Of a stretch of 63,210 nucleotides of DNA, positions 13,042 through 50,245 are shown one piece after another. The position numbers and the translations under genes were made by a program. Each line of letters starts with the position of its first letter. The first letter of the stretch is position 1. Source of the DNA: Candidatus Nomurabacteria bacterium. Lineage in GTDB: Bacteria > Patescibacteriota > Minisyncoccia > Phycocordibacterales > UBA10002. The notes under the pieces were generated by a model. The model was not told the DNA's origin. It searched no databases and saw only the letters and a list, made by a program, of their open reading frames with translations. The DNA lies in contig CALRDB010000003.1 in the NCBI GenBank assembly GCA_943354745.1, positions 1 through 63,210 of the forward strand, given 5' to 3'.

Positions 13042-13845
13042 CTAGTCTTTTACCAACGTAGACTTCCACGATAACTCAAATATGGTTTTCATAATGCGGT
13101 GAATTGCCTCGTCCTCGATCACTGTCCCAATCATTTTCCCCTTTTCAAAATTCGCGATAGAAACCTTGTTTTCTCCATAGACGGTGATTTCCCCCACAAA
13201 AGGAAATTGCTCTTCTTTCACGAAACGCATTTCTGGCCGTATCTTCTTTTCTGTGTGTTCATAACGCCACACGGAAAAAGTGCGGTTCTCTTCCGTGTCG
13301 GGAAGAATGCCTCTTGTCGTAATACCGATTTTTTCTTTTTCACGCACATACTGGTTGAAGAACTTCGGTGGGAGAAATTGGCGGAGTTCCGCCGCGTTTG
13401 CGAAGGCAAGCATTTCGTAAGGACGGTTCACGGAAATATGGTCGGTATAAATAGCGAGTAATCCTTCAGCCCCTTCGTAGTAGGTGACTCTCGGCCGTTC
13501 ACCGTGAGCGCTGTAGAGACCTTCAATATCAGGAAGGACCGACTGTGCCCGCTCCGCACACTCGCGCGCCATTCCAACCTGGCTTTCTGCGTAGCGAACA
13601 ACCTTTTCCGGCTTCTCTATTTGGTAGAAAAGCTTGTTTTTCTTCTCTATTTCATTCACTAGTCCCCGAACCGACAACGTCAGTAGGACATGATACACAG
13701 TACTTCTATTTAAGCCGGTGTAGTTCGCCACTTTTGACGGATACGCCCCGCTCAGCTCCAGAAGGCAGAGATATACTCTCGCCTCTTTGTCGGAAAAGCC
13801 CGATTTTTCAAGCTTCTGCAGGAGTTCCGGGTGAGTAAATTGCAT
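13042..13845 (-). CDS. TrmB family transcriptional regulator
   Basis: GFSDKEARVYLCLLEL...GLNRSTVY wHTH; YYEG..G effector domain; EITVYGENKV. Confidence 0.88.
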   Translation of the reverse strand: MQFTHPELLQKLEKSGFSDKEARVYLCLLELSGAYPSKVANYTGLNRSTVYHVLLTLSVRGLVNEIEKKNKLFYQIEKPEKVVRYAESQVGMARECAERAQSVLPDIEGLYSAHGERPRVTYYEGAEGLLAIYTDHISVNRPYEMLAFANAAELRQFLPPKFFNQYVREKEKIGITTRGILPDTEENRTFSVWRYEHTEKKIRPEMRFVKEEQFPFVGEITVYGENKVSIANFEKGKMIGTVIEDEAIHRIMKTIFELSWKSTLVKD

Positions 13846-13989
13846 AAAACTACGATAGCAGAAGTGGTATTTTTGTCAATAAAGACGCACAAAATATATC
13901 AAAAAGCATAAAACCCTTATTTATAGGTATATTGTATCCCAATATGGATATATATGTCGCACAAATATTGACGTATCTGATATACTATT

Positions 13990-15129
13990 GTGAAGAAAGA
14001 TTATTCATTAGTAGTAATAAGTATGAAACTACATATAAAAAGTCTTGCAGGTCTTGTTCTCTTTCTGGGTCTGGTTATTTTCGGGGTTGCTCTATTCTGT
14101 TCGGGAAGTCCTGTTGTGCCTGGAAAAGAGGTTATTACCATCGGCACGACGCTTCCGCTCACAGGAAACCTCGCGTTCCTTGGTGAATCATACCGGGACG
14201 CTATTAATCTTGCGCTAAAAGACCTACCAAAGTCGGACAAATATACCTATAAGGTTGTATTTGAAGACGACGGGTTTGATCCGAAGAAAGCGGTAAGCGC
14301 GGCGCAGAAACTTATTGACAGCGACAAGGCGGACATACTTTTCTCGTTCGGTTCTCCGGCGGGTAATGCCGTGAGTCCGATTGCGGAAGCTCGCCGTATC
14401 CCCCACTTGAATGGTATCGCCTCCGATACGAATGTCGCGAACGGTGTCTACAACTTTGTACACTGGACACCGCCGTATGAGGAGGCTCGGGTGTTAACGC
14501 AAGAATTGCAGAAACGAGGCATCACCCGCGTCGGTATCTTGGAAACAAATCAGCCGGGCACGATTGCTGTCGGTAACGCGGTTCGTTCCTCTCTCGCGAA
14601 GACTCCGATACAAGTTGTATCCGAGGAACGGTTTGCCCCCGGAACGAAGGACTTTCGGTCAATCATCAGTAAAGTGAAAAATAGCGGAGCGGAAATCTAT
14701 CTTCTCGAGGCGACTTCGCCGGAACTTGAAATTATGGCGAAGCAGATGCGGGAACTCGGGGTCAAAGAGCCGTTCACCTCCATCGAAGGGTTTGAATTTA
14801 CGGACGAGCCCGCCCTCTTCGAGGGAATGTGGTACGTGAATGCCGCAGATCCGACTGCCGACTTCGTTGGACGATTCTCCAAAGAATACGGACGCGAGGC
14901 AAAAATCGGAGCCCCAAACGGATACGACGCACTGAATCTTATTGTGTACGCGGTTGAGCATGCGGGAACAAAAGAGAAACCCAACGCTTTGGACATCGTT
15001 GCGGGACTTAACCGGATCAAAGATTTCTCTGGAGCTGTCGGCACGCTGAATGTCGATAGCGAAGGCCTCATGTTGTCGCAGGCAACAGTTCGTGTGATGA
15101 GAGACGGTAAGCCGATTACCATTCGATAA
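13990..15129 (+). CDS. Periplasmic-binding protein, LivJ/LivK (branched-chain amino acid) type
   Basis: IGTTLPLTG, EDDGFDPKKAVSAAQKLI, NGYDALNLI, FSGAVGTL. No permease or ATPase adjacent. Confidence 0.85.
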   Translation: MKKDYSLVVISMKLHIKSLAGLVLFLGLVIFGVALFCSGSPVVPGKEVITIGTTLPLTGNLAFLGESYRDAINLALKDLPKSDKYTYKVVFEDDGFDPKKAVSAAQKLIDSDKADILFSFGSPAGNAVSPIAEARRIPHLNGIASDTNVANGVYNFVHWTPPYEEARVLTQELQKRGITRVGILETNQPGTIAVGNAVRSSLAKTPIQVVSEERFAPGTKDFRSIISKVKNSGAEIYLLEATSPELEIMAKQMRELGVKEPFTSIEGFEFTDEPALFEGMWYVNAADPTADFVGRFSKEYGREAKIGAPNGYDALNLIVYAVEHAGTKEKPNALDIVAGLNRIKDFSGAVGTLNVDSEGLMLSQATVRVMRDGKPITIR

Positions 15130-15189
15130 TTTTTGTCCATTCGAAAAAGAAAAAGACCCGGTAAGGGTCTTTTTCTTTGGTGTAAAAAT

Positions 15190-17325: not shown

Positions 17326-17414
17326 ACGCGAATTTCCCCCCTTTTTCCTCCCCTCTTTAGAGGGGAGGATTGAGGTGGGGTGGAGTTGCTCTCTGAAATG
17401 AAGACTTGAACCCA

Positions 17415-18275: not shown

Positions 18276-18356
18276 ATATTCCAGTGTTTGCGTTACGAGG
18301 CGAAGGGTCACCCCTTCGCCTCTTTTTTGTCTAGAAGCTAACAGCTAAAAGCTGTT

Positions 18357-21516: not shown

Positions 21517-21521
21517 TTATC

Positions 21522-29373: not shown

Positions 29374-30072
29374 CTATGCGATATTCCAAATCAGAGCTCC
29401 TTTGGTTGCATGCTCCTTCACGAACCGCCAGATTTTGGAATCGTACCAAGGGGAAGACGGGTAGGGTGGCGGAAACTCTCCTCGGTCTGTCGGTTTCTCC
29501 GGTGCTTGGTACACCGTCCCCATCATGAGAGCATTTGGCATCATTCCCAAGTTCACAGTGTTTATTCGTGCCTCCGGCCACGCCATTGCCAGACATCGTG
29601 AGGTGGTGCCGGACCCTCCCGCCACCCATACTTCTTCAGGTCGAACGGGAAGATTTCGTGCCATTTCCACCAAGTGTTCCACAAACATCTTACACTCGAA
29701 GCCGATTGGCATATAATACGCACTCCGCATTTCTGCATAATGTTCGGCCAACCCAGCTAAGTTCTTTTGGTGAGCCACCCCTTCCATAAAGTAGCAAGTT
29801 ATGTTGTTCAATGACCGTGCTTTCGCATGGATGCAGGTCATCACTTCCGGTCCCGCAAAGAACAAGGTTACTTTTTTGTTGTGGTAGAGGCCGGCCAGCC
29901 CCAATGCGTAACCGGAATGTCCGTATGCATGTCCCGCGTACACAACTTCTTGTTCTGGTATTTGTGGAAACACTTCCGCTACGCACTTTGCCTTGATGCC
30001 TCCGGGAAAGAGGTCACCTCTCACGACGTTGAAACCGTCGTGCTCCTGCAGTATCAGTCTGTGGAATTCCAT
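29374..30072 (-). CDS. Minimal fold-type II (TrpB/cysteine synthase/ACC deaminase-like) PLP-dependent enzyme
   Basis: VVRGDLFPGGIKAK (candidate PLP Lys), WVAGGSGTT phosphate loop, PPPYPS..YDSKIW and IWNIA terminus. Confidence 0.7.
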   Translation of the reverse strand: MEFHRLILQEHDGFNVVRGDLFPGGIKAKCVAEVFPQIPEQEVVYAGHAYGHSGYALGLAGLYHNKKVTLFFAGPEVMTCIHAKARSLNNITCYFMEGVAHQKNLAGLAEHYAEMRSAYYMPIGFECKMFVEHLVEMARNLPVRPEEVWVAGGSGTTSRCLAMAWPEARINTVNLGMMPNALMMGTVYQAPEKPTDRGEFPPPYPSSPWYDSKIWRFVKEHATKGALIWNIA

Positions 30073-30091: not shown

Positions 30092-30490
30092 TTATCTGCC
30101 TACAACGGTTAGGCGTTTTTCGCTGCCCGCCGGTTGATGATCGTTGCCGATGGAGATAAGTACCAGTTCAGTCTCCGCTTTGATTGCGTGCGGCGCATAC
30201 GGTGGTACAAGGTAAGTCATCCCCTCGAACATGGAGTACGGCCTTCCGCAGTACACAAGCACTCCCTTTCCTTTGGTCACCATAAGAATGTGCGCCCCCG
30301 GATGCGTATGCATATCAACGCCCAAGCCTGCTGGAAAGCGGATGACATCCGCGCCGAATTTATCGGAAAGTACCAACGGAAGGGCACTGCCATAGCTGTG
30401 CGCCATCTGAATCGGTTGTACCCCCTCGAATGACACAAGTTGTCCATTGATGAAGTCGCACCATTTGGATTGAATCAGTCCTGTTTGCAT
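30092..30490 (-). CDS. Cupin domain protein (ATG at 30490)
   Basis: HTHPGAHILMVTKGKG and PPYAPHAI cupin metal motifs. Confidence 0.85.
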   Translation of the reverse strand: MQTGLIQSKWCDFINGQLVSFEGVQPIQMAHSYGSALPLVLSDKFGADVIRFPAGLGVDMHTHPGAHILMVTKGKGVLVYCGRPYSMFEGMTYLVPPYAPHAIKAETELVLISIGNDHQPAGSEKRLTVVGR

Positions 30491-30607
30491 AGTTTTCAAT
30501 TTTCCTTTCTGCCCAAAACGATACCGTTTAGAGTGCGAGTGGCAAACAGGACTCGCGAGTGGTACTTACCACCTTTACAAATCCACGGCCATATGTATAA
30601 TTATCCT

Positions 30608-30671
30608 GTCATTCCACTGAAAAGTGGAATCCAGAGAAAGTAAGACTGGATTCCCGCCTATGCGGGAATGA
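30608..30671. repeat. GTCATTCC-family palindromic element
   Basis: gtcattccactgaaaagtggaatccag...ctggattcccgcctatgcgggaatga, directly upstream of a TrmB gene. Confidence 0.75.
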
Positions 30672-30680
30672 TAGAAAAAC

Positions 30681-31823: not shown

Positions 31824-32083
31824 TGCGCATAGATTTTCACCGCACATTCAAGAAGCAATACAAGAGAGCTCCCGCCAAAATTCGGGAGCAGTTTAACGAA
31901 CGACTCCAATTGTTTGAAGACAACCCCTTCCATCCTCTTTTGGTTAATCACGCGCTTGGAGGTGACCGACTGGGCAAGTGGAGTATCAACATCACCGGAA
32001 ACTGGCGAGCGTTATATGTCTTTCAAGACGCGGAAACAGTTGTCTTTGTTGAGATAGGGACGCATCCTCAACTATATGGATAA
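31823..32083 (+). CDS. RelE/YafQ-family mRNA interferase toxin
   Basis: FHRTFKKQYK, NHALGG, SINITGNWRALY, IGTHPQLYG; TGATG-coupled to the antitoxin. Confidence 0.85.
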   Translation: MRIDFHRTFKKQYKRAPAKIREQFNERLQLFEDNPFHPLLVNHALGGDRLGKWSINITGNWRALYVFQDAETVVFVEIGTHPQLYG

Positions 32084-32176: not shown

Positions 32177-32791
32177 ATGGATAGACAAACTGCGATTAAA
32201 CAACTGGAAGAGCTAGAGCGGCTGGGTGGGGTAAAAAAGATGCGCCTTGCGGCCGAGGGGTGGAGGGAGGAGTGGCAGACGCTTATCTCAATCCTCATGT
32301 CCGCGCGGACGCGCGATGAAGTGACGGTGATTGTTGCGGAAAATCTGTTTGCGGAGTTCCCGACGCTAGTGGAACTTTTAAAGGCGAATCCAAAGGATGT
32401 GTCGAGGATCATCGGGCCGGTGAACTTTTTTCAAAACAAAACGAAATACGTCATCGCGATTTCCCGAAGGCTGCACGAAAAACACGGCGGCAAACCGCCG
32501 CGTACGATAGAAGAGCTCATCTTGCTCCCCGGCGTCGGTCGTAAAACCGCGAATGTCTTTATTTCAGAATATGGCGCTCCCGCTATCGGCGTGGACACGC
32601 ATGTCTCCTACATCTCACAAAAACTCGGGTGGACGAAGAGCAAAACACCCGACAAAATCGAAATTGATTTGAAAAACCTTTTCCCGCAGAACTTTTGGAG
32701 CCGCGTGAACGGCAGTTGCGTCCGTTTCGGCAAAACCTATATGAGCCGCATCAAAAAAGACGAGCTACTCCAAAAGATTTCCAAAATCTAA
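32177..32791 (+). CDS. nth: Endonuclease III-like HhH-GPD glycosylase lacking the 4Fe-4S motif (copy 1)
   Basis: LMSARTRD, LPGVGRKTAN, GVDTHV; no C-terminal Cys cluster. Confidence 0.85.
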   Translation: MDRQTAIKQLEELERLGGVKKMRLAAEGWREEWQTLISILMSARTRDEVTVIVAENLFAEFPTLVELLKANPKDVSRIIGPVNFFQNKTKYVIAISRRLHEKHGGKPPRTIEELILLPGVGRKTANVFISEYGAPAIGVDTHVSYISQKLGWTKSKTPDKIEIDLKNLFPQNFWSRVNGSCVRFGKTYMSRIKKDELLQKISKI

Positions 32792-32843: not shown

Positions 32844-33956
32844 CTATTTAGCTGATTTCTGCAGCTTAAAAATAGCAAAATCCTTGACCTTCCTCCCCTT
32901 GAGCTCGTATTCCGGTGTGAAGAGGGTGTCCACGAGATCCAAACCGGCTTCTTTGAACGCCGCCGTATACCATTCTATCGGCCGGTGCGATTCGATGATC
33001 TCATAATTACCCTCCTTCTTTATCTTTTTATAGTTGTGGTTGTCTTCGTACTTATGCTTGGTCTGCATCCTAAAATCAATTTTTGACTCGGGCACATCGA
33101 ATATGAGTGGGTTGCAGAAACCGACATAGACCGTGCCCCCCTCCTTAACTTTGAGGTATATATTCTTTAGAATATTTTTTACTTCCTTTTCCGGGACAAT
33201 ACAGAGCACGAGATTGCAGATTATGATGTTAAAGTAACTATGCGGGATGTCTTCGACTTTTTTGTATACATTTTCGCGGCCGATCCTCTCACCCGCTCTC
33301 ATCCGCATGTCGGGTGAGATGTCGAACAGTCTGCTGTCAGCTCCCTTCGCCTTGAGAGCTGTGGCCAATACCGCAGGCCCGCCCCCGTAATCAAGCACTT
33401 TTTTATTCTTGAGATTGCCGAGCAACGGAATCAGGGTGTTATCGTAGTACGCTAACTTTATCTTCTCGGACTCAAGCTCCTTTAGCACCTTTCCCCACTG
33501 GCGCTGGCCGGAAACCAGTATCCTGTTGGAATCCCACATGATCTTCCAGAATTTATCGTACGATTCTGCAGCGATTTTATTCGATATGAGAATCCCAATC
33601 GGGATTTTGGTCCAAATGATGATACCTATTTTGTCATTGCGGATTATTGTTTCCGTGAGCGGCTCAAATGATTTCTTTATAAACTTGTATTCCGTCTTCG
33701 GATACTTGTTGTCCCCCGTCCAATCTTTCAAAGACTCATTGAAAATGAGCTTCGCGTTGATTCCTAATTTTGCTCTCTCTTTGTGATACTGCGTCCAGAA
33801 ATCGTCGCCTAGCATCAGTGACTCTTTTGCGGAACCAAAAGTATGGTGATCCTTCCCACCGGCATTAAGCAGAACGGCCAGTAATTCTTTTACCTCGCCA
33901 ATCCCTTCATAAGAAACTATATGATGAGCCGTTAATTTGTGTGACGCATTCGGCAT
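32844..33956 (-). CDS. Fusion of a TrmB effector-type domain (no HTH) with a class I SAM methyltransferase (start MPNASH at 33956)
   Basis: N-half resembles the C-terminal halves of the local TrmB proteins (SYEGIGE, FWTQYHKERAKLGI, NDKIGII, SYDKFWKIMW); C-half VLDYGGGPAV, ICNLVLC. Confidence 0.7.
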   Translation of the reverse strand: MPNASHKLTAHHIVSYEGIGEVKELLAVLLNAGGKDHHTFGSAKESLMLGDDFWTQYHKERAKLGINAKLIFNESLKDWTGDNKYPKTEYKFIKKSFEPLTETIIRNDKIGIIIWTKIPIGILISNKIAAESYDKFWKIMWDSNRILVSGQRQWGKVLKELESEKIKLAYYDNTLIPLLGNLKNKKVLDYGGGPAVLATALKAKGADSRLFDISPDMRMRAGERIGRENVYKKVEDIPHSYFNIIICNLVLCIVPEKEVKNILKNIYLKVKEGGTVYVGFCNPLIFDVPESKIDFRMQTKHKYEDNHNYKKIKKEGNYEIIESHRPIEWYTAAFKEAGLDLVDTLFTPEYELKGRKVKDFAIFKLQKSAK

Positions 33957-33957
33957 G

Positions 33958-35259
33958 TTATCTTGAAAGCAACATACTAAGCAAAAGTATGACTGTTGAG
34001 CCAATCAAATACGCATTCATGTCTCGCCATTTACCCCGTACGGCAAACAACACAAGAAAAGCGGCAAATCCGGCAAACATCGCTTTGTCGAGTCCAAAGG
34101 TCCAAATAGTCACCAAAATCATTATCGCTACCGCGACAATGTCAGTCCAAGAGTACTCTTTCAAATCTTTTTTACTTGGAAACAGCATTAGACCGACAAA
34201 GAATAACGCACCTGTGGTAGCGACAACCGGAATGAGGTTTATGAGCGGCACAAGAAACAAGAAGAGTGACATCAAGAGCGCAACTACGACCGCAACCAGT
34301 CCGGTTCTGCCACCTTCTCCAATGCCAACCGCACTTTCCACATACGTAATTAAGTTTGATGTTCCGGTTGCCGCGCCGATAACCGTTCCAGCCCCGTCAA
34401 CAATTAGTCCCTCTTTGAGACGAGGCAAATTTCCCTCACTATCGACAATATTGGTGTTTCTGGTAAGGCCGATAAACTTTGCGATACTTCCGTAGAAATC
34501 AAGAATAAAAAGTACGATAATGACAGACCAGATTTTTGGGTCAAAAATAATACGCCAATCAAACGCAAAAGTTCCGGCTAACATATCTTTGGACAGTGTG
34601 ATGGGCTCGATTGGCTGTGCCACTCCTAAAAAATGAGCAAGGATTGCCGCGCCAATGATACTCAGAATAACGGCACCCTTAATTTTGAAGTGCTTCAATA
34701 TCGCAACCAGAATAAGACCGGCACAAAAGATGATTGCTTCGTGAGAAGTGAGCAACCCTAAGCCTGTAACCTGAATTCCCTCATAGGCGAGTATGCCACT
34801 CACTTTGAGAGCAATAAGCATCAGGAAAACACCAACCGCCGCGGCAAGTCCTGATTTAAGTTTGTCCGGAATTGCTTTAACGATATTTACTCGGAGTGGT
34901 GTATAGCTGAGGAGAACGGTAAAAACTCCGGACCAAAAGACTGCCCCTAACGCACCTTGCCATGTAAAACCTAAAACACCCACAACGACGTAAGCAACAT
35001 ACGCATTCATTTCCAGTCCAGGCGCGACAGCGAACGGCAGTCTTGCCCAGACACCCATCAAAAGAGTTGCGATGACAGAACCTAGAATTGTCGCAAAAAA
35101 AGCAACACTCGTGTTGATTCCTGCGGCCGATAAGATTGCCGGATTAACGACAAAGATATATGAAAGAGAAAGAAACGTTGAAAGACCCGCAAAAATCTCA
35201 ATCCTAAAAGACGAGCCAAGTCTTGTTATTCCAAAGAAATCATCCAGTCTTTTTAGCAT
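33958..35259 (-). CDS. NCS2 family (AzgA/PbuG-like) nucleobase permease
   Basis: EIFAGLSTFLSLSYIFVVNPAIL, APGLEMNAY, TYVESAVGIGEGGRTGL; about 12-13 TM. Confidence 0.9.
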   Translation of the reverse strand: MLKRLDDFFGITRLGSSFRIEIFAGLSTFLSLSYIFVVNPAILSAAGINTSVAFFATILGSVIATLLMGVWARLPFAVAPGLEMNAYVAYVVVGVLGFTWQGALGAVFWSGVFTVLLSYTPLRVNIVKAIPDKLKSGLAAAVGVFLMLIALKVSGILAYEGIQVTGLGLLTSHEAIIFCAGLILVAILKHFKIKGAVILSIIGAAILAHFLGVAQPIEPITLSKDMLAGTFAFDWRIIFDPKIWSVIIVLFILDFYGSIAKFIGLTRNTNIVDSEGNLPRLKEGLIVDGAGTVIGAATGTSNLITYVESAVGIGEGGRTGLVAVVVALLMSLFLFLVPLINLIPVVATTGALFFVGLMLFPSKKDLKEYSWTDIVAVAIMILVTIWTFGLDKAMFAGFAAFLVLFAVRGKWRDMNAYLIGSTVILLLSMLLSR

Positions 35260-35721
35260 AATGCTTTGATTAAATTGTTAATTATAAGTTTACTCCCTAC
35301 TATGCTTGAATCAACGCACAGTAGAAGACTCTATGAATCCGCCAGCCTCAGCTGATGAACTCAATAAAGTGGGGGAGGTGTGACGTTCCCCCGTGAAAGT
35401 TTTCTCGGTTAACTTACAACCGAGTGGATGTACCACTATTTATTTACCGGGAAGATACCAATTTTATTGGTACCGCCTTCTCGTAGTCTCCCCACTATCG
35501 GGGCGGCTTTTTTTACGAGAAGCTGCCAGTCATCTGACCGCGGAGGGTACGACATCATTACTAAACCCGATTCTCCGCCAATCCCTGGCATGAACCATCC
35601 GCTCCCGTCGATTCCATCATGGGGACACTCTACTACGAGTGTCCTAATTCATTACGGAATGCTTCACTTCCTTTCAGAGTCAACCCGTTTCAAAGAGCTT
35701 CCTCTTTACTGACTCCTGTAA

Positions 35722-35750
35722 TTATTGCACAGTTGTGTATGACTGTCAAT
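35722..35750 (-). promoter_or_regulatory. Sigma70-type promoter about 455 nt upstream of the permease start
   Basis: TTGACA-17 bp-AATAAT on the minus strand. Confidence 0.55.
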
Positions 35751-35881
35751 CAATATTTTACAGTAATAAGGCTAATCTGCAATATAATATTGCAAAATAA
35801 GGATAAAAAAGTGTTGACGAAGTATTGACAACAAAGGTATTTTTGCTACTATAGGACCTACGCACTTTTACTTTTTTGGGT

Positions 35882-35951
35882 GTCATTCCCTTGAAAAGGG
35901 GAATCCAGAGTATGTAGTATGGTCCTGGATTCCCGCCTCCGCGGGAATGAC
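35882..35951. repeat. GTCATTCCC-family palindromic element
   Basis: gtcattcccttgaaaaggggaatccag...ctggattcccgcctccgcgggaatgac, upstream of a TrmB gene. Confidence 0.8.
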
Positions 35952-36004
35952 GGAAGGGAAAAAGGTAAAGCATGCTAAACGCATAAGTCCTGTACTATTT
36001 CAAT

Positions 36005-36793
36005 ATGATAAATGAGCTATTAACGAAATTAGGCTTCAGTGATAAGGAGATTCAGGTGTATCTCGCCGTGCTTGAAAACGGTAAAATTGCACCTGCGCGG
36101 GTTGCTGCCGTTACCAACATCAAGCGCTCTACTGTCTATGCGGTGGCGAAAGAACTCCTGAAAAGAGGTGTTATTACCGAGGATGTTGAGGGTTCAGGTG
36201 GATATTTGGTCGCCTTACCTCCCGAAAACCTCAATTCCGCGGTAAAAGCTGAAGAGCAGGCGATTGCGGAGAAGAAGAAGATTATAAAGGAAGCAGTTTC
36301 AGAACTTCTGACGATACCACAGTCAAAATCGTACTCGGTTCCAAAAATGCGGTTCATTGACGAGTATAACGTGAAGGATTTTCTCTATCGGCAAACGCCG
36401 GTGTGGGAAGAAAGTATGTCGCTCACCAAGGAAACAACGTGGTGGGGATTCCAAGATCATACGTTCGTGGAAGACAAGGAATGCGGCGAATGGGTGGACT
36501 GGTATTGGAGCCGAGCGGCGGAAAAATTCGATTTGAAACTCATCTCCAATGATTCTGAGATTGAAGAGAAGATGAAAGCGAAGAATATTGAACGACGAGT
36601 GATTAAGTTCTGGAAGAAAGATTTCAAGTTTACCGCTACGACATGGATTCTTGGCGAGTATGTCGTCCTCATCATGTCCAAACAGCGTCCTCACTATCTC
36701 GTGGAGATTCACGATGCTGTGTACGCGCAAAATATGCGTGAAGTATTCCGCAATCTTTGGAATGTGATTGATATACCTAGCGCAAACTCATGA
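36005..36793 (+). CDS. TrmB family transcriptional regulator
   Basis: LGFSDKEIQVYLAVL..IKRSTVYAV wHTH; TWILGEYVVL. Confidence 0.88.
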   Translation: MINELLTKLGFSDKEIQVYLAVLENGKIAPARVAAVTNIKRSTVYAVAKELLKRGVITEDVEGSGGYLVALPPENLNSAVKAEEQAIAEKKKIIKEAVSELLTIPQSKSYSVPKMRFIDEYNVKDFLYRQTPVWEESMSLTKETTWWGFQDHTFVEDKECGEWVDWYWSRAAEKFDLKLISNDSEIEEKMKAKNIERRVIKFWKKDFKFTATTWILGEYVVLIMSKQRPHYLVEIHDAVYAQNMREVFRNLWNVIDIPSANS

Positions 36794-37401
36794 AAGAGAA
36801 AGCGATACGACAATTAGAGGAGTTGGAACGGCTTGGGAGCGTAAAGAAAATGCGCCTTGCGGCGGAAGGGTGGAGGGAAGAATGGCAGACCCTGATTGCG
36901 ATTCTCATGTCCGCGCGGACGCGCGATGAAGTGACGGTTATCGTGGCTGAAAATCTGTTTTCCGAATTTGGAACGCTCCAAGAAATTGGTAAGGCAAACC
37001 CACGCGATATCGCGCGGGTTATCGAGCCGGTGAACTTTTCTCAGAATAAAACAAAATACGTGATTGCTATCGCGGAAGTTTTGCTTAGGGAATACAAAGG
37101 GAACCCTCCGCACGAACTTGAAAAATTGATTCTACTTCCGGGTGTGGGACGCAAGACCGCAAATGTTTTTTTGGCGGAGTACGGGGCTGACGCCATCGGT
37201 GTTGATACACACGTTTCCTATATTTCGCAGAAGCTCGGATGGACCAAACATACGGACCCCGACAAGATTGAACAGGATTTGCTCGCGCTCTTTCCGCGGA
37301 CACACTGGCGAAAACTTAACTCCACACTGGTTCGCTTTGGGAAGACGTATCAGAGTAGAATAGAGAAAGACGAATTACTTTTGCGTATAAAGAAATGCTA
37401 A
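36790..37401 (+). CDS. nth: Endonuclease III-like HhH-GPD glycosylase lacking the 4Fe-4S motif (copy 2)
   Basis: Same motifs as 32177..32791 with long identical peptide stretches (KKMRLAAEGWREEWQTLI, SARTRDEVTVIVAENLF). Confidence 0.85.
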   Translation: MKEKAIRQLEELERLGSVKKMRLAAEGWREEWQTLIAILMSARTRDEVTVIVAENLFSEFGTLQEIGKANPRDIARVIEPVNFSQNKTKYVIAIAEVLLREYKGNPPHELEKLILLPGVGRKTANVFLAEYGADAIGVDTHVSYISQKLGWTKHTDPDKIEQDLLALFPRTHWRKLNSTLVRFGKTYQSRIEKDELLLRIKKC

Positions 37402-41546: not shown

Positions 41547-42419
41547 ATGCAGTGTATGAAGATTACACCGGTGCATATTCGGACGTTTCAAGAAACAGTG
41601 TTTCGCTTTTATACAAAACAGAGTAGGTCCTTACCATGGAGAGATGCACGCGACCCGTACGCGATTTTGGTTTCGGAAATAATGCTTCAGCAGACGCAGG
41701 CGGAGCGAGTGGTTCCTTTTTATGAAACGTTTCTTAAGAAGTTTCCCACTCTTCAGACACTTGCTCGGGCGTCCGTTGGTGAGGTGCTGCGATTATGGCA
41801 AGGACTCGGCTACAACCGGCGCGCGCTCAATTTAAAACGTTCTGCGGAAATGATTGTAAATGAATACGGAGGAGTTTTTCCAGAAACCGTTGAGGCGATA
41901 GACACGCTTCCCGGAGTCGGTCCGTACACTGCGGGAGCTGTCGCTGCCTTCGCTTTTGGCAACTCCTCCGCGTTTATTGAAACAAATATCCGTACTGTGT
42001 ATCTTCACTTCTTTTTTCGGGACAAGTTGAACGTGTCCGATGAAGACATCTTGACGGTGATCCGTCAGACCTTACCCGACGCCCAACATTCCAACATTCT
42101 CAAGAATGTTGGAATGTTGGGACGTAAAAAAGTAGTGCGCGAGTGGTACAACGCGCTCATGGACTACGGAGCAATGTTGAAAAAGAAAGAAGGGAATGAA
42201 AATGTCAGGAGCGCTGGCTACAAAAAACAGTCAAAGTTTAAAGGTTCACAAAGAGAGTTGCGCGGAGAGATATTGCGTAAAGCTTCGCATGGTATAGTCT
42301 ATGCATCAACCTTCGCAACACGTGAGCAAAAAGGCCTTTCTGTTTCACAAACTCTTTCGGATCTTGAATCGGAAGGGTTTCTGAGAAAGAAGGGAACTGG
42401 TTTTGTATATGCATCATGA
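41547..42419 (+). CDS. mutY: A/G-specific adenine glycosylase MutY-like (no 4Fe-4S Cys motif)
   Basis: DPYAILVSEIMLQQTQ, WQGLGYNRRA, LPGVGPYTA, IETNIRTV, ALMDYGA. Confidence 0.88.
   Translation: MQCMKITPVHIRTFQETVFRFYTKQSRSLPWRDARDPYAILVSEIMLQQTQAERVVPFYETFLKKFPTLQTLARASVGEVLRLWQGLGYNRRALNLKRSAEMIVNEYGGVFPETVEAIDTLPGVGPYTAGAVAAFAFGNSSAFIETNIRTVYLHFFFRDKLNVSDEDILTVIRQTLPDAQHSNILKNVGMLGRKKVVREWYNALMDYGAMLKKKEGNENVRSAGYKKQSKFKGSQRELRGEILRKASHGIVYASTFATREQKGLSVSQTLSDLESEGFLRKKGTGFVYAS
42083..42120. repeat. Perfect 18-bp inverted repeat inserted in frame in mutY
   Basis: ccaacattccaacattct-ca-agaatgttggaatgttgg, encoding QHSNILKNVGML. Confidence 0.8.
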
Positions 42420-44371: not shown

Positions 44372-44442
44372 GCGGGATTAGTTTAATGGTAGAACTGCAG
44401 TTTTCCAAACTGTAGGCGGGAGTTCGATTCTCCCATCCCGCA
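44372..44442 (+). tRNA. tRNA-Gly(TCC), CCA not encoded
   Basis: GCGGGAT/ATCCCGC acceptor stem, GCAGT-TTTCCAA-ACTGT anticodon arm, GTTCGATTC T-loop. Confidence 0.92.
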
Positions 44443-44645: not shown

Positions 44646-44674
44646 CATCAAACCGAAGGACCGGATTAGGTTTG

Positions 44675-44869
44675 TCACTCTCCCCGCAAGACCTTAAATA
44701 ATTCAACTTCTAGGCGAAATAATGTATCCTGCATCTTCTTCAGTTCGTCTAATTTTTCTTGAGAAAGAATTGATTCAGGCGATTCGATAAGTTTCAGAAT
44801 AGAGTTATCGTATTTTTCATCGAGGGCTTTCCACGCGTCTCCTAATTCCTTTAGTTTTTCTTTTTTCAT
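44675..44869 (-). CDS. Small acidic/helical hypothetical protein
   Basis: 64-aa ORF whose ATG overlaps the aldolase stop (ATGA). Confidence 0.6.
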   Translation of the reverse strand: MKKEKLKELGDAWKALDEKYDNSILKLIESPESILSQEKLDELKKMQDTLFRLEVELFKVLRGE

Positions 44870-45642
44870 GTTTGTATCAATTCTGGTGATCTAATAATGC
44901 CGCGTGAGGCCAGAGCTTTTTTTATGCCGACATACCAAGTCTTTGAAGCCAAATCGAGCTCTTCCCATTTTTCCATTATCTGCCTGTTCAATTCTGCTGA
45001 TGGAGTGCCAAACATGTCGTTACATAATTTGGGCTCAGTATTGGCCAAAGAAATCAGATATCCGTCACAGCCGATAGATTCCAATAGTTGATTTTCCATT
45101 CCCTGGAGAACGCTCATTCTAAGTTTGCCGATCTTTCTAAGTTTTATCAGTTTTGTAAAGAGATCCATGTTCTTGGAACTGTCTTTGATGGCGATGATAT
45201 TTTCGATACGGTCTACTTCCCGAATCGCCCGTACTGATTTGAGCGCCGTAGTCTCGGTATTGTAAATGATAATAGGGAGAGAAACTTCCTCTGATATTTT
45301 CTTGAAGAACATGATATTTTTGTCATCGGAATTGAATGGAACAGGTATAACGACAGCTTCACATCCAAGTTTCTCCGCACTTCTAGCGAGCCGAATGATA
45401 CTTTTTATTTCTTTCCGTTTGATACCGGCGATAACGGGTTTTGTTGTTTTTGCTCTAACCGTTTTCACAACTTCTATCCATTGTGAATCAGACAAAAGTC
45501 CCCCTTCTCCGGAACTCAAACAGGGTACGTAGCCATCGACATGTGGTTCGACCGTGTTCATTAGATCCCTCATCGAATCGCTGTCGAATTTCCCATGGTA
45601 CATGGGCGTAACAAGCGGTATCCATAGTCCTGTTATTTGCAT
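44866..45642 (-). CDS. DHDPS/NAL-family class I aldolase (RohR-like candidate)
   Basis: LWIPLVTPM, CLSSGEG, IIIYNT (Tyr), IAIKDSS (Schiff-base Lys), DGYLISLAN; lacks the canonical DapA GTTGE. Confidence 0.8.
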   Translation of the reverse strand: MQITGLWIPLVTPMYHGKFDSDSMRDLMNTVEPHVDGYVPCLSSGEGGLLSDSQWIEVVKTVRAKTTKPVIAGIKRKEIKSIIRLARSAEKLGCEAVVIPVPFNSDDKNIMFFKKISEEVSLPIIIYNTETTALKSVRAIREVDRIENIIAIKDSSKNMDLFTKLIKLRKIGKLRMSVLQGMENQLLESIGCDGYLISLANTEPKLCNDMFGTPSAELNRQIMEKWEELDLASKTWYVGIKKALASRGIIRSPELIQT

Positions 45643-46793
45643 AAATTTTTTTCGTATGTATCGAGAGCTCTACGTACTAACGTAATTGCCGGCTTAAACA
45701 TCTCGGTATTGCGGGCCAGCGCGATCCTCACATAACGCTCTCCTTTTGTACGATCGCTCCAGAAAAAGTAAGTGCCGGGAAGAATATATACACCGGCGTC
45801 CAAAACCAACTTTTGCAGTTCCGTCGCTGTTACTCGGGGTTCTTTGATCCTCAACCAAGCGACGCTCACCCCTGCTTCCGATTCTTGGTATTCCAAAAGG
45901 GATCCAGCAAGCATTTCTTTTAACAGATTTCGGTTTGTATCGAGCAGATTATAAACCGATTCAAAGTGATCTCTTTCGGAGTCCAGAATATACTGCGTAG
46001 CAAGATTCAAGATGAAGGGAGAAACATTCAAGAGGTAGGAAGTATGGATGTTGTATATTTCCTCATGCAAGTCTTTGCTCGTTTTGAGCATGGCCACTTT
46101 CGTATCTTGGATTGGATATGTTTTGCCTGTGTCTTCGATGGCGATGTAACTCACTCCTGATCGTTCTAGTATTTCGTAGACGGGAGCTACTTTGATATGC
46201 GGGGCGTAGTCTACGAAAGGCGCAAAGCAGTAGTCGATCAGTAAAAGCTTGTTTTTGTCTTTGGCGAAGCGGATCAGTTCGCTGTATGCTTTGTCGCCAT
46301 GTGAAAAGAGCGTGAATCCTGTTGGGTTATTGGGATCAACAATAAAGATAGCATCTGTTTTTACATGCTTCTCAAGGTTGTCATACAAGGTGGAAGGGTT
46401 ATGAAGCCATTCTTCCTTAAGTACCACTATCTCGATCTGCATGTGTTCCAAAATGTCATGGATATTGTCGAAACAGGGCTCAAGCAGACTCACTGACATT
46501 TTGTTCTTCATAAGATAGTTTGCGACTATCACCATGGCAATAGAAGAGGCGTACACGAGCATTGTCGGCGTTTTTAGTGCGTATTCCTGTTTCTGGACAC
46601 GGAAAAAAGTCTCGATAAATTTCTGTTCCGTGTCATATTGCCGTGTCTTTTCCGCTTCGTACCAAAGACTGGAAAGTCTGCCCACAATTTCCCTTTGGGA
46701 AGGGGATTGGGATTGGTGGGTATGTGCGTCGGCGAGGTTGTATTTCACTTTCAACGCCTCGATCTCATGTTGTGTAATATCTTTATATTCCAT
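45633..46793 (-). CDS. PLP-dependent L-arginine oxidase/hydroxylase, RohP/MppP/Ind4 family (fold type I)
   Basis: ITQHE...KYNLADAHTHQ, EPCFDN, VDPNNPTGF, IDYCF, EDTGKTYP (PLP Lys), HTSYLLNVSPF, LPGTYFFWS, YVRIALAR match family motifs as recalled. Confidence 0.85.
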   Translation of the reverse strand: MEYKDITQHEIEALKVKYNLADAHTHQSQSPSQREIVGRLSSLWYEAEKTRQYDTEQKFIETFFRVQKQEYALKTPTMLVYASSIAMVIVANYLMKNKMSVSLLEPCFDNIHDILEHMQIEIVVLKEEWLHNPSTLYDNLEKHVKTDAIFIVDPNNPTGFTLFSHGDKAYSELIRFAKDKNKLLLIDYCFAPFVDYAPHIKVAPVYEILERSGVSYIAIEDTGKTYPIQDTKVAMLKTSKDLHEEIYNIHTSYLLNVSPFILNLATQYILDSERDHFESVYNLLDTNRNLLKEMLAGSLLEYQESEAGVSVAWLRIKEPRVTATELQKLVLDAGVYILPGTYFFWSDRTKGERYVRIALARNTEMFKPAITLVRRALDTYEKNLCK

Positions 46794-46962
46794 ATTTCTG
46801 ATTATTTATTCTGGAATAATTTTCCCACGAACTTGCAATTCTGTCTAATAAGTGTTAAAATAGAGACATCAAAAGTGGATAATATGGCTCTAATGCGTGG
46901 AGTAGATGTCAAAAACTGTCAGATTTATTGACTTTTTGTGCTTTGGGGTAGATACTAAACGT

Positions 46963-47694
46963 ATGATAGAAACCTTAAAATTGCTTGGAATAAAAGACAA
47001 AGCCGCGCATGTATACAGCGCGGCTCTTGCTCTCGGAACCTCTTCCGTCAAGGATATTGCCGAAAAAGCGGCCCTCAAGCGGCCAACGGTCTATGTATAC
47101 CTTGAAGAGTTGGCAAAAGATGGCTTTGTCCAAAAGATCACGATCGGCAAGAAAGAGTATTACCAAGCGACTTCGCCGCGGCTTATTGAAATGCGTCTTG
47201 AGGAGAATCTAAAGTCGCTCAAAAAAGAGATGCCGCATCTTGAGATGCTCCACATGCAAGCGCAAGGTAAACCGGGTGTCACGGTCTTTGAAGGAGAAAG
47301 AGGATTGAATCAGCTCTATGAGGAAGTGAAGCGCACCAAGGACCTTATCTTCTGGTCGGACCTTTCCTCGGTGGAAGCGCTGTTTCCGGATACGGTTCGT
47401 AAAATAAGCGAGGCGATTCTTGATAATAAAATCTTTACACGCGAGATTCTCGCCGATACGCCGGAAGCACGGGCAAGTTCCCGCCGGTTCAAGGTGGTTG
47501 CGGCGGATTTCTACATGGGACGTCTTGCGACCGGTCCAATCTTCAACGACAGCGTTATTTATGACAACGTCGTCGCGTTTTTCCGTATTCAGCAAAACAA
47601 TCTCTTTGTCGTTCGTATCGAAGACCCGACGATTGCCGTAACGATGAAAACGCTATTCGAAATGGCCTGGCAGTCGGCCAAGCCGTTTAAGTAA
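46963..47694 (+). CDS. TrmB family transcriptional regulator (ATG 46963)
   Basis: LGIKDKAAHVYSAAL..LKRPTVYVYL wHTH; VFEGERGL; DSVIYDNVV. Confidence 0.87.
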   Translation: MIETLKLLGIKDKAAHVYSAALALGTSSVKDIAEKAALKRPTVYVYLEELAKDGFVQKITIGKKEYYQATSPRLIEMRLEENLKSLKKEMPHLEMLHMQAQGKPGVTVFEGERGLNQLYEEVKRTKDLIFWSDLSSVEALFPDTVRKISEAILDNKIFTREILADTPEARASSRRFKVVAADFYMGRLATGPIFNDSVIYDNVVAFFRIQQNNLFVVRIEDPTIAVTMKTLFEMAWQSAKPFK

Positions 47695-47745
47695 GGAGAT
47701 TCTGCTCGGTTAAGCAATAGTGAACGGCCGTACACTATTGCTAAA

Positions 47746-48528
47746 TCAGTTGCGGAGCTTGGAGTCGAGACGTTTGGCCTCTGCCCAGGCGAGTTCGTAG
47801 ATTTTCTTCATCGCGTCGGCGATCTCCGCGCTTTCAATGATGATGCCGAGCTTTTCGCGCCATGACGCAATCAAGATTTTATTGTCGTAAATGTTTATTT
47901 CCGGAGAAAAAGAAAATTTATCTGGAGGTATAAAGGCAATCTCTCGTTTTTCTTCTTCACCATAGGGCACGCGGGCGCGCGCTATCGGCGTGTGGGGAAC
48001 AATCGCGCGTATCGCGATACCCGCGTCTGCTCGTCGTTTGTAGTATTCGGGAAAGTAATTCGGGAGACCTTTGTGCATATCTTCCACGTTGGCGTACGCA
48101 CGGATAGGTTCCTGTGAAGTAAGTGTATCTTCGTACACCTGTTTTAAACCATCAGTTCCTTCGTAAAATTTTATTTTCGGCCGGTTTTGCGTCGCGTGTA
48201 CTGAACGGAGCTGGGGGAGAAGTGCTCCAGCCTTTTCGATGCGATCCCTCGCAAGTTCCGCTTCGCGCTTTAAGTAGGCAACCACCGATTCCGGCGGTTC
48301 TGCGGCATACTCTTGTTTCGGCTCCTTTCCGGTCACGTTTACAATGCCTTTGCTTGAGAGGGAATCCAAGATGTCATAGCCGGTCGTGCGGTTGATGCCC
48401 GCCTTACGGGCTATTTCAGTAACAGTGCCATGTCCAAGCTCCAGCAATGCCACATAGACAATTGATTCCTTTTCGCTAAACCCAAGTGTGTGCAGGGTAG
48501 AGGGGAGTTCTTTGTTTTGTGTTTCCAT
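47746..48528 (-). CDS. TrmB family transcriptional regulator
   Basis: LGFSEKESIVYVALLEL..GINRTTGYDIL; FYEGTDGL; EINIYDNKI. Confidence 0.9.
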   Translation of the reverse strand: METQNKELPSTLHTLGFSEKESIVYVALLELGHGTVTEIARKAGINRTTGYDILDSLSSKGIVNVTGKEPKQEYAAEPPESVVAYLKREAELARDRIEKAGALLPQLRSVHATQNRPKIKFYEGTDGLKQVYEDTLTSQEPIRAYANVEDMHKGLPNYFPEYYKRRADAGIAIRAIVPHTPIARARVPYGEEEKREIAFIPPDKFSFSPEINIYDNKILIASWREKLGIIIESAEIADAMKKIYELAWAEAKRLDSKLRN

Positions 48529-48829
48529 GTTTGTTGTCTTAATTCTCCCTTTATAAAAGTGAGGGGACTGCTTGCGGTGAGGGATTTCAAAATCCTTCCC
48601 GCCGAAGACGGCGTGTGCTCCCTTTAGGAAAAGCTTGCAGTCGTAGACTGGGAGAATAAGACAATCCTACACCCCAACCTCTCTTTGTGTCAATTATCTT
48701 CCACAGAAATATGCCTAGTGTACTGAATACTATTGTAAAATAAGGCTTTAGTGCTCATTTTTACTGACGATTTACTTTGACAGTATGTATCGTACTACGA
48801 TATGATATCCGCAGAAAGTCAATTGTTTC

Positions 48830-50245
48830 TTGAAATTTTATACAGAGATAAAGTTCGCAACACAAAACCTCAACGAATGGACTAAAGCAATGCAAAACAA
48901 GACAACCTTAGTACTCACATACAACAAAGTGGACGGATTCAAGCCGGGTGCTTACGGAAACGGACGCGTCGTGGTTCTCCAGGCCGACCTCGCGAAGTTC
49001 AAGGATAACGACACGGAGAAAAGCTCATTCGAGCTTTACTTCCAGACGTTCAACCTGGTGAAGAGAAACATTGCCGAGGCAATTATTTACCTCGGCGATC
49101 TCAAAGAGGCTTCACCTAATTGGCAAGCAAAACGCCGAGCGTTTGATGCGATGTATCGCACAGCCATAGCACACGTCAAGACAGCGGATAAGGTGCTTAT
49201 GGTTACATGTCGATGTGACCGTGACCTGAAGGAAAAGTTTGCCGAACAGCTCAGGGTCAAGCTTATCTGGTCAGGGTGTGGGGGAGGGAGAACGCTCGGG
49301 CGGCTAATACAGGAGCGTCTGGATGAAGTACCCCAAGCTCCAACAGTCAGAGAGCTCGCGCTTCAAGTGGAGTTCGCTACTCTGGCACAGGAGAATGGCT
49401 GGGTACAGACACCCTCCTTTAGGAACTTCGCCGTTCTCGGTGCAACGCTCTTTGCTAACAGAAACGACGGAACCATTTTTAAAAAAACCGAAAGTGGTTG
49501 GGACGAAAATGGTTTGCAGATCGCTTTCGGTGCTAACGAAATGAAAGAAAACAGAGATAGGAAAAAACTGAAGATACTAGTGTTCGCTGGTGGCGGAATA
49601 GATCGCAAATCAGCCGAGTTCAGTCTCGCAGGTCATGAGCTCACCATCGTGGGGACTTATGACGAGGCACAAGATGCTCTGATCCCCAAAACGAACTACA
49701 CAGAAAAAGAGAGTATTTACCGCAAGCTTTCCGCGGAAAAGGGTGGGGGGATTAGAATGTGGAAGAGAGAGGAAATGATGGCGAAAGCGGAAACACTGGC
49801 CACAACGTTTCCGGACTTTGATGTCGTCTTAACCGACCTGCTTGTGCCGGCATCGGCGAGGATTCAAGGTTTCCAACAATTCGTTGGTCAGAAGATGCCT
49901 CTCGGATCCGTGATTGCCTTGTTGGCACTTACCGCGCGTGTCAAAAATGTGGCGGTGGTAACCGATATGAATCACCACAACCCCCCGGCATCGGCGGCCT
50001 TCGATTGCTTTACGGAAAAACAACATTGCGAAGGTATCAGAATACTGTGCACGAACAATGTTGGTCGTATTAGAATTGACACTGAAACAAATACGGCGGT
50101 CGCTCATGATTTCCTCGAGTCCGATGCCAGCCTGGAGAAATATCCGTATTTGAGGCAAGGGGAAGAAGGGTGGGGAGAACGCAAAGGTCTCACTATTGGT
50201 GGCAAGGATTGGGGAAAAATCCTCCGTTTGGTGGTTGGCGACTAA
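48830..50245 (+). CDS. Hypothetical multi-domain protein; C-terminal half receiver (REC)-like (start perhaps 48890)
   Basis: C-half LKILVF..., FDVVLTDLLVP, PLGSVIALLA, VAVVTD pattern; N-half unrecognised. Confidence 0.65.
   Translation: MKFYTEIKFATQNLNEWTKAMQNKTTLVLTYNKVDGFKPGAYGNGRVVVLQADLAKFKDNDTEKSSFELYFQTFNLVKRNIAEAIIYLGDLKEASPNWQAKRRAFDAMYRTAIAHVKTADKVLMVTCRCDRDLKEKFAEQLRVKLIWSGCGGGRTLGRLIQERLDEVPQAPTVRELALQVEFATLAQENGWVQTPSFRNFAVLGATLFANRNDGTIFKKTESGWDENGLQIAFGANEMKENRDRKKLKILVFAGGGIDRKSAEFSLAGHELTIVGTYDEAQDALIPKTNYTEKESIYRKLSAEKGGGIRMWKREEMMAKAETLATTFPDFDVVLTDLLVPASARIQGFQQFVGQKMPLGSVIALLALTARVKNVAVVTDMNHHNPPASAAFDCFTEKQHCEGIRILCTNNVGRIRIDTETNTAVAHDFLESDASLEKYPYLRQGEEGWGERKGLTIGGKDWGKILRLVVGD

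Follow-up and report, generated by a model that had tools for sequence, protein, structure and literature searches.

Five divergent gene pairs headed by TrmBL2-type regulators in a Patescibacterium: one co-inherited with a binding protein, four with replaced partners

The window analysed here, a stretch of 63,210 nucleotides from contig CALRDB010000003.1 of a Candidatus Nomurabacteria bacterium (assembly GCA_943354745.1), encodes five paralogous regulators of the TrmB family (T1 to T5, Table 1), each of which is transcribed away from its upstream neighbour. A first-pass annotation of this DNA had regarded the five pairs as sensors that travel with their cargo. This cassette interpretation has partial support: it is correct for one pair, while the other four show the reverse. 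T1 and the gene for a Liv-type substrate-binding protein (SBP) constitute a genuine recurrent, co-inherited two-gene cassette, whereas at T2 to T5 the regulator and its control DNA are retained among close relatives while the genes of the divergent slot are replaced. The finding is drawn from comparative evidence only, and its best reading, to which we give a probability of roughly 0.55, is that the TrmB proteins would be autoregulated local regulators heading exchangeable cargo slots.

The window has a bacterial gene content (PNPase, Mur ligase, Ddl, CCA-adding enzyme, ComM, RNase Y, ClpP, NusA, and trigger factor) and originates from a lake-water metagenome. Since its best protein matches are metagenome-assembled genomes (MAGs) of Candidatus Taylorbacteria and Paceibacterota, the host is taken to be a Patescibacterium, as had been assumed from the start. 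Related loci (L numbers) were sampled through a genome scan queried with T1 and a metagenome scan queried with T2. The closest genome with DNA available for comparison is GCA_030649255.1 (loci L023 and L075), with which the backbone is collinear through ddl, HhH-GPD, DUF2339, DUF3999, HhH-GPD, RNHCP, a trypsin-like protease, tRNA-Gly, HU, RNase Y, and ClpP.

The upstream neighbour of all five TrmB genes lies on the opposite strand. The head-to-head arrangement that had been claimed for every one of them holds strictly for T1, T2, T4, and T5, with gaps of 144 bp (T1/SBP), 181 bp (cupin/T2), 169 bp (RohP-like/T4), and 301 bp (T5/471-aa protein), while T3 is divergent yet separated by 745 bp from the NCS2 permease gene, an interval that includes a probably spurious 94-aa open reading frame (ORF). 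T4 and T5 are convergent and 51 bp apart, and T1 is followed after 12 bp by a gene for a 325-aa protein. Within the window, for which the strand list was hand-curated, the divergent state is found for 5/5 TrmB genes against 15/50 other genes (binomial p = 0.0024). In ten related loci with source gene calls, it is found for 16/16 TrmB genes against 54/141 others (38%; Fisher p = 8e-7), and cruder in-house ORF calls over all fetched loci give 62/75 against 235/520. Compared with other genes, TrmB paralogues much more often stand at the head of a divergent pair, and a random orientation across genomes, which the first-pass annotation had named as refuting, is unlikely.

The evidence for replacement comes from the orthologues of T2, T3, T4, and T5, which at 67-97% identity never carry the cargo of the window in the loci examined; those of T3, T4, and T5 keep their syntenic positions, and the neighbours of T2 to T5 in the window are accessory genes, as first described. 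Orthologues of T2 reach 97% identity and none of them, even at 94-97%, stands beside a cupin gene; their partners are HTH/LysM-like proteins of 116-199 aa, a secreted family of about 200 aa, or SBPs. The NCS2 permease is likewise absent next to the T3 orthologues in the loci examined. At 80% and 69% identity, these are partnered with a Gcw_chp-like protein and a small protein, and at 84% with a small protein followed by an SBP_bac_3 ATP-binding cassette (ABC) operon; the gene downstream of T3 also differs among relatives. T4 orthologues with 89%, 73%, and 67% identity occupy the same place, between tRNA-Gly(UCC) and either HU or T5, and their partners in L023, L024, and L026 are Gcw_chp-like secreted proteins, never the RohP-like protein and aldolase. 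The T5 orthologues face a radical-SAM/SPASM-like protein of 419 aa (two genomes), a small ORF (120 aa or a 94-aa acylphosphatase) together with a 559/571-aa protein, or a pair of proteins of 117 and 157 aa. A conserved T5 partner was ruled out, the partner proteins belonging to unrelated families.

The control region is as conserved as the TrmB gene, or more so. Relative to L029, the T2 control DNA is 89% identical and the gene 81%, and the conserved block breaks off sharply on its left at 30536/7; the T3 control DNA (35688-35852) is 87% identical to L075 as against 76% for the gene. The T4 segment 46815-46938 is 77% identical to L023 and reaches within about 22 bp of the RohP start codon, though the cargo genes differ. 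Similarly, L023 and L078 share the T5 control region with the window as far as about 48819, a strong cargo-side promoter included, and beyond that point the cargo differs. In the upstream alignments of T4 and T5, the cargo-side promoters are conserved and the ORFs that follow them differ. Breakpoints fall at the edge of the control region, and the outer borders are tRNA-Gly(UCC) for the T4 slot and the conserved HhH-GPD and HU genes for the T3 and T5 slots. Relative to GCA_030649255.1, the varying junctions comprise four of the five beside a conserved TrmB gene but one of nine elsewhere (p = 0.023). More distant relatives differ by the gain or loss of entire modules; in L078 and the P0007 genome, those of T2, T3, and T4 are absent from the syntenic positions.

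Every TrmB promoter carries one clade-specific inverted repeat on or beside its TTGACA -35 box, as seen in upstream-region alignments (the spacings in Table 1 are those of the window copy). The T1 repeat is kept in 11/11 upstream regions, the T2 block with its palindrome is present in 7/7, the T4 repeat in 4/4 orthologues, and the T5 repeat in 7/7, while at T3 the element TGTTG-N12-CAACA occurs in 3/3 upstream regions and TGCAATAT-A-ATATTGCA in 2/3. Such repeats are features expected of autoregulated local regulators and are predicted here to be operators. Promoter scores are 10/12 for T1 and 11/12 and 10/12 in the T5 region. A second TTTGTGCG lies at 13958-13965, 72 bp on towards the SBP gene, so that two of the three copies in the whole window are found in this spacer; it stands beside TTGACG, a possible SBP -35 box that was read by eye and not listed by the promoter scan.

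According to the reading that we prefer, i.e., autoregulated local regulators at the head of exchangeable slots, each TrmB dimer would bind its own palindrome, and the bound protein would repress or activate two promoters, its own and that of the back-to-back neighbour. Cargo would be swapped by homologous recombination between the TrmB platform and the conserved outer flank. Genes such as those for the RohP-like protein and aldolase, the NCS2 permease and methyltransferase, the cupin, or the 471-aa protein would thereby land under an existing TrmB-controlled promoter and come under the resident regulator.

Several points weigh against this reading. The palindromes on the -35 boxes show at most autoregulation, a second copy of the motif elsewhere in the spacer being present only for T1, and the 745 bp between T3 and the permease are a long distance for two genes that share a control region. 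The junction test compares one genome pair with small numbers, and we infer the recombination mechanism only from breakpoint positions. The loci were picked via their TrmB genes, several of them are near-duplicates, and the in-house ORF calls give some artefacts. None of the RNA-seq runs searched contained the locus sequence. Finally, the closest solved relative, TrmBL2, is a non-specific chromatin protein and global repressor rather than a local regulator (PMC4158304, PMC4877046).

A bolder extension, which we hold only tentatively and consider unlikely, is that a TrmBL2-type regulator and its bidirectional control region would serve as a landing pad, at which recombination with the tRNA or housekeeping flank swaps the divergent genes in an integron-like but recombinase-free manner. 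If true, acquired functions such as the oxidase/aldolase, permease/methyltransferase, and cupin would be wired at once to a resident regulator, and minimal genomes could trial accessory genes under ready-made control.

The pair of T1 and the SBP behaves as the first-pass annotation had proposed, because it recurs, forms arrays, and stays linked as its position relative to pnp changes. T1 orthologues were found in 19 species-representative genomes (42-64% identity), and a Peripla_BP_6 SBP is the divergent partner in about 10 of the 19 loci of this clade, eight of those SBPs being 39-49% identical to that of the window. Tandem SBP(-)/TrmB(+) arrays occur in L017, L019, L005, L018, L020, and L076, and the array of L018 adjoins genes for the LivH/M permease and LivG/F ATPase. 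The linkage is kept while the location relative to pnp shifts, and a Nomurabacteria genome lacks the pair in the corresponding ComM-DksA-pnp block. Joint travel of regulator and cargo thus stands for T1 (about 10/19 loci and tandem arrays) and fails for the pairs of T2, T3, T4, and T5, for which no orthologue locus examined has the cargo of the window.

Extended to all five pairs, the proposal of a mobile sensor-plus-cargo cassette that moves as a unit, with TrmB sensing a cargo-related metabolite, seems improbable. The T1-SBP pair is what it predicts, and further observations agree with it, namely T2 with an HTH/LysM-like partner in two contexts (beside ddl and beside rsmE), the absence of whole T2, T3, and T4 modules noted above, and a C-terminal domain that is an independent module, fused to a methyltransferase in the window and present as tandem copies in other proteins. 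However, the absence of the window's cargo from the T2 to T5 orthologues extends to those with 89-97% identity (L023, L028), and the regulator and control DNA are fixed in place while the cargo differs. Moreover, these proteins lack the sugar-binding subdomain through which TrmB acts as a sensor (PMC4158304). Small-molecule sensing by the C-terminal domain is possible.

The proteins themselves bear on what such regulators could do. PF01978 scores above the Pfam gathering cut-off (25.6 bits) in exactly five window ORFs (46.6-63.6 bits), which confirms the count of five TrmB genes, and a profile built from the five detects no further helix-turn-helix (HTH) copy in window ORFs of at least 50 aa. 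A longer ORF for T4 begins at 46906; the start at 46963 given in the first-pass annotation is right, since every T4 orthologue has 243-250 aa. The five are full-length paralogues with 23-35% identity, T1 and T5 being closest at 35% and the similarity of T1 and T3 being limited to the first 60 residues or so. R47 and Y51 are invariant across the five, and Y51 corresponds to the DNA-recognition tyrosine of TrmB (Y50 of Pfu TrmB; residue roles from PMC4158304). The following residue is H, D, A, V, and D in T1 to T5, respectively (Asp only in T2 and T5), a difference that fits distinct DNA specificities.

No match to the effector domain PF11495 was obtained at E <= 0.01 in any of the five. The five-protein profile matches TrmBL2 (PDB 5bpd/5box, 264 aa) between profile residues 15-252 and residues 19-263 of 5bpd (E ~4e-9). 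An AlphaFold2 (AF2) model of T5 from a 45-sequence alignment (pLDDT 92.9) comprises a winged helix, a long helix (80-110), and an alpha/beta domain (118-259), and ends after this phospholipase D (PLD)-like domain. The top eight Foldseek matches of the model are TrmBL2 chains (best 5bpd, E 4e-14), followed, for the C-terminal domain, by the PLD-fold proteins PLD3 and vaccinia F13. Because PF11495 is missing and the profile, AF2, and Foldseek matches all lead to TrmBL2, the five are assigned to the TrmB family with TrmBL2-type architecture (winged HTH, long helix, and PLD-like domain) and are not classical sugar sensors. They belong to a TrmBL2-architecture branch of the family that is expanded in Paceibacteria (Patescibacteria); by profile, the family numbers 22,890, 13,215, and 4,351 representative clusters (50% identity) at E <= 1e-3, 1e-10, and 1e-30, respectively. 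T5 orthologues with 62-92% identity make up nearly all of its 120 best database matches and span Taylor-, Nomura-, and Jacksonbacteria.

This likeness raises the alternative that the TrmBL2-like proteins are nucleoid-associated or global repressors, possibly silencing new DNA, and that their variable neighbours reflect a plastic region, which we regard as distinctly improbable. The closest solved structure with the same architecture is indeed a chromatin protein (PMC4158304), the conservation of T5, the paralogue for which this alternative is least improbable, is unusual for a local regulator, and RelB/YafQ, Bro-N, tRNA-Gly, and palindromic repeats occur within the same 20 kb. Nevertheless, the presence in each genome of five or more paralogues that have diverged and that each have a conserved palindrome at their own promoter fits sequence-specific factors, as does the variable residue after the recognition tyrosine; the divergent layout is near-universal, and SBP partners recur across three TrmB clades. 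It is highly unlikely that the five pairs are generic and lack specific meaning, autoregulated regulators merely tending to directon boundaries, since, commonplace as divergent regulator-target pairs are in the LysR, TetR, and IclR families and modest as the p value of 0.0024 from five genes alone may be, the 16/16 against 38% in independent loci, the recurrence of partner families (SBP 19, secreted ~200-aa 8, Gcw_chp-like 5-7, and 471-aa family 5), and an intergenic conservation that extends past the TrmB promoter all speak against chance.

Among known systems, the closest likeness is to TrmBL2 of the Thermococcales (TK0471/PF0496; PDB 5BPD, 5BOX, and 5BQT), which shares the length of ~260 aa, the winged HTH, the long helix, and the PLD-like domain without a C-terminal sugar-binding subdomain. 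TrmBL2 lacks about 70 C-terminal residues that hold the sugar-binding domain, and no ligand is known for it (PMC4158304). However, it is archaeal, single-copy, abundant, and binds DNA non-specifically (PMC4158304, PMC4877046), whereas the window is bacterial and holds at least five paralogues in 37 kb, with clade-specific promoter palindromes, a divergent partner, and an identity to TrmBL2 of only about 17%. TrmB of Thermococcus litoralis and Pyrococcus furiosus (PDB 3QPH), the repressor of the trehalose/maltose ABC operon, shares PF01978, the recognition tyrosine, and a genomic and probably functional link to an ABC SBP gene (T1-SBP and the arrays). In contrast to TrmB, the window proteins are without PF11495, and the beta-barrel subdomain with six of seven sugar-binding residues is missing (PMC4158304). 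They also have 243-267 aa against the 338-341 aa of classical TrmB and TrmBL1, and the SBPs of the window type are Liv/HAAT proteins (Peripla_BP_6) rather than sugar binders.

LysR-, TetR-, and IclR-type pairs resemble the present ones in back-to-back transcription, a short shared control region, and an operator (predicted here) over the regulator's own promoter, which yields autoregulation; they belong to different protein families, and here the target is swapped while the regulator and control region stay. To our knowledge, target exchange with a fixed regulator has not been described as a rule for the LysR, TetR, and IclR families. The integron offers an analogy only, i.e., a conserved promoter platform beside a site with unrelated ORFs in each genome, but here there is one slot per regulator and exchange is most likely via flanking homology. 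No integrase domain was found in the window ORFs that were scanned with Pfam, and no search aimed at attC or attI sites was made.

The genomes of Patescibacteria are very small, and gene regulation in this group has received little study; a literature search returned no paper joining TrmB with Patescibacteria or the Candidate Phyla Radiation. If TrmBL2-type proteins regulate surface, uptake, and accessory genes locally, they would provide a handle on nutrient scavenging in episymbiotic bacteria, and a fixed regulator with exchangeable cargo would illustrate how acquired genes can become regulated without a new regulator evolving. The predicted operators are short clade-specific palindromes, which makes them testable without cultivating the organism.

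Table 1. Regulators, control regions, partner genes, and repeat elements of the window (positions are those of the window unless a locus is named).
Feature	Position	Strand	Description
T1	13042-13845	-	267 aa; PF01978 50.2 bits; TrmBL2-type regulator
T1/SBP control region	13846-13989	.	Inverted repeat TTTGTGCG-N6-TTGACAAA at 13872-13893 over T1 -35 box
Liv-type (HAAT) SBP	13990-15129	+	Peripla_BP_6 E 3e-47
232-aa protein	29374-30072	-	Second gene of T2-side cargo; family unassigned; absent from all T2 orthologue loci
Cupin_2 protein	30092-30499	-	PF07883 E 8e-10; faces T2 in this window alone
T2 control region and leader	30536-30680	+	Conserved block 30536-30607; palindrome GTGGTA-N2-TACCAC 30559-30572; repeat element 30606-30674
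T2	30681-31445	+	254 aa; PF01978 63.6 bits; TrmBL2-type regulator
TrmB C-domain and S-adenosylmethionine (SAM) methyltransferase fusion	32844-34004	-	C-domain aa 28-165, no HTH; co-directional with permease
NCS2 (xanthine/uracil family) permease	33958-35259	-	PF00860 E 2e-30; closest divergent neighbour of T3
T3 control region and leader	35688-36004	+	Palindromes TGCAATAT-A-ATATTGCA 35778-35794 and TGTTG-N12-CAACA 35812-35833 on -35 box; repeat element 35881-35952
T3	36005-36793	+	262 aa; PF01978 49.6 bits; TrmBL2-type regulator
HhH-GPD DNA glycosylase	36790-37401	+	PF00730; 4-bp overlap with T3 stop codon; not mentioned in the first-pass annotation
tRNA-Gly(UCC)	44372-44442	+	Outer border of T4 slot; same tRNA borders slot in L023, L024, L026
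64-aa ORF	44675-44869	-	4-bp overlap with aldolase gene end; also in source annotations; no Pfam match
Dihydrodipicolinate synthase (DHDPS)-family class I aldolase	44866-45642	-	PF00701 E 7e-25; PDB DHDPS up to E 1.7e-17; 10-bp overlap with RohP-like gene
RohP-like pyridoxal phosphate (PLP)- and O2-dependent L-arginine oxidase/hydroxylase	45633-46793	-	PDB 6c3a E 6.6e-133
T4 control region	46794-46962	.	Inverted repeat TGTCA-N6-TGAC 46917-46932 on T4 -35 box; cargo-side promoter-like site 46847-46819(-)
T4	46963-47694	+	243 aa; PF01978 46.6 bits; TrmBL2-type regulator
T5	47746-48528	-	260 aa; PF01978 61.1 bits; TrmBL2-type; most conserved paralogue
T5 control region	48529-48829	.	Inverted repeat TGTG-N12-CACA 48686-48705 on T5 -35 box; cargo-side promoter TTGACA-18-TATGAT 48777-48806
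471-aa protein	48830-50245	+	Family unassigned; source annotation starts at M21, giving 451 aa
Palindromic repeat copies	3505-3590(+), 30606-30674(+), 35881-35952(+), 61784-61860(-)		Within the window
Palindromic repeat outside the window	L075 837-911; L028 ~2621-2701		Also in the T1 leader of L009

Most of the cargo assignments made in the first pass were borne out by profile matches (Table 1), i.e., the Liv-type SBP, the cupin, the NCS2 permease with a methyltransferase (Methyltransf_23 E 5.6e-11), and the arginine oxidase with an aldolase, whereas two were not. The 232-aa protein beside the cupin, which had been called a PLP enzyme, matched nothing in Pfam, NCBIfam, or the PDB, and its GGxK- and GSGxT-like motifs were noted by eye only. 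The 471-aa protein facing T5, which had been described as REC-like, has no Pfam or PDB match; its alignment with CheY by hhalign reached 22% probability and a single-sequence AF2 model gave a pLDDT of 33. Its C-terminal half belongs to a family recurring beside TrmB genes: homologues with 43-48% identity face T1-like genes at the loci L008 and L021, and T2-like genes at L040 and L041.

The true start of the window SBP is probably M12 at 14023. No ABC membrane genes (permease or ATPase) were found among the window ORFs. In L017, L019, L005, L018, L020, and L076/L077, two to four TrmB genes per 6-8 kb are arranged as SBP(-)/TrmB(+) units, some of them by LivHMGF, which suggests that one transporter may be served by several separately regulated binding proteins. 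A distant T2-like clade (31-40% identity; L054, L057, L058, L061, L062, L063, and L069) contains two tandem TrmB genes with overlapping or nearly abutting ends, adjoining HU-RNase Y-ClpP, in which the first gene is divergent from a secreted protein of about 200 aa. Many of the top relatives in a representative library (P0294, P0295, P0297, P0298, P0306, P0320, and others) run to 400-1079 aa and have a single TrmB HTH with two to seven tandem C-terminal domains of about 135 aa behind it, each ending in an F..LWNQ motif. We know of no description of this architecture.

The RohP-like protein of the T4 slot aligns with RohP, a Streptomyces enzyme (PDB 6c3a), over its full length (residues 5-380) with roughly 58% identity, and the PLP-lysine motif segment 'EDTGKT' is conserved. 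Its match to MppP of enduracididine biosynthesis is weaker (E 9e-46), and because it scores 159 bits against a cut-off of 450 in the NCBIfam MppP equivalog, it is regarded as RohP-like rather than MppP. An exact-sequence look-up of the protein returned only contigs of the source organism. The RohP-like, aldolase, and 64-aa genes form an overlapping three-gene unit (44675-46793, minus strand), an O2-dependent module that is unexpected in a Patescibacterium. Hedges and Ryan are said to have set out, in 2019, the order of the azomycin pathway, in which RohP is reportedly accompanied by the aldolase RohR; the aldolase here may be RohR-like, as judged by context only. The order of a RohP-like enzyme and then a DHDPS-type aldolase recalls the rohPQRST azomycin cluster, from which the window differs in its Patescibacterium host and in having no adjacent RohQ, RohS (N-oxygenase), or RohT, only the three genes lying between tRNA-Gly and T4. 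It is more likely that the unit would convert arginine to pyruvate and guanidinoacetaldehyde or 2-aminoimidazole rather than to azomycin.

The T4 slot is not bracketed by matching direct or inverted repeats of the kind left by site-specific integration. Short contigs from an unrelated groundwater metagenome run (X4) match the RohP/aldolase genes (45192-46628) with 95-99% identity, as against 87-89% for T4 and 93% for T5 (46939-48152). This hints that the cargo shares a more recent history than the regulators, at a low depth at which the fragments may come from different organisms. An apparent joint between 48483 and 46777 in the same run was set aside on account of its very short flanks. The leader of T5 harbours a structured insert of about 110 nt (..CCTAAAGGGAGCAC..GCCGTCTTCGGCGG.., ~48545-48660, minus strand), which is common to L023 (~9570-9680) and absent from L078 and L001; a similar sequence occurs in the T2 leader of L029.

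Near T3, the C-terminal domain of the methyltransferase fusion is the sixth copy of the TrmB C-domain in the window (hmmsearch E 2.7e-9; hhalign 90.8% probability, E 1.2e-6) and is nearest to the T5 type, not to the adjacent T3. Three HhH-GPD paralogues are encoded within 10 kb on the plus strand (32177-32791, 36790-37401, and 41547-42419); the first two duplicate a single gene of the relative (82% and 75% identity) and bracket the methyltransferase-permease-T3 segment. Between the permease and the T3 control region, about 460 bp (35260-35740) without a credible ORF are GC-richer and hairpin-rich, with a terminator-like hairpin and T-run on the plus strand at about 35488-35514 and no plus-strand gene upstream. 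This stretch could be a small RNA or a permease leader. Rfam searches of the 460-bp spacer and the T3 leader gave no credible match; hits to mir-205 (E 0.033) and GcvB (E 0.99) in the T3 leader/permease spacer were dismissed as chance.

Further markers of a plastic region are a RelB/YafQ toxin-antitoxin pair just 3' of T2 (31521-32083, plus strand), a Bro-N domain protein after the 471-aa gene (50450-51277, plus strand), and a DUF559 endonuclease-like gene (1307-1717, minus strand). In addition, a palindromic repeat of ~70-85 nt (GTCATTCC...GGAATCCAGA...GGATTCCCGC-N4-GCGGGAATGAC), for which no Rfam family was found, occurs four times in the window, where 0.01 copies are expected. One copy is found in the 5' leader of each of T2 and T3, and another inside the coding region of ksgA/rsmA; in relatives, the repeat is found inside ddl, where the product is 28-41 residues longer. 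It resembles the in-frame palindromic elements of Rickettsia and has fold z-scores of -3.1 and -6.6.

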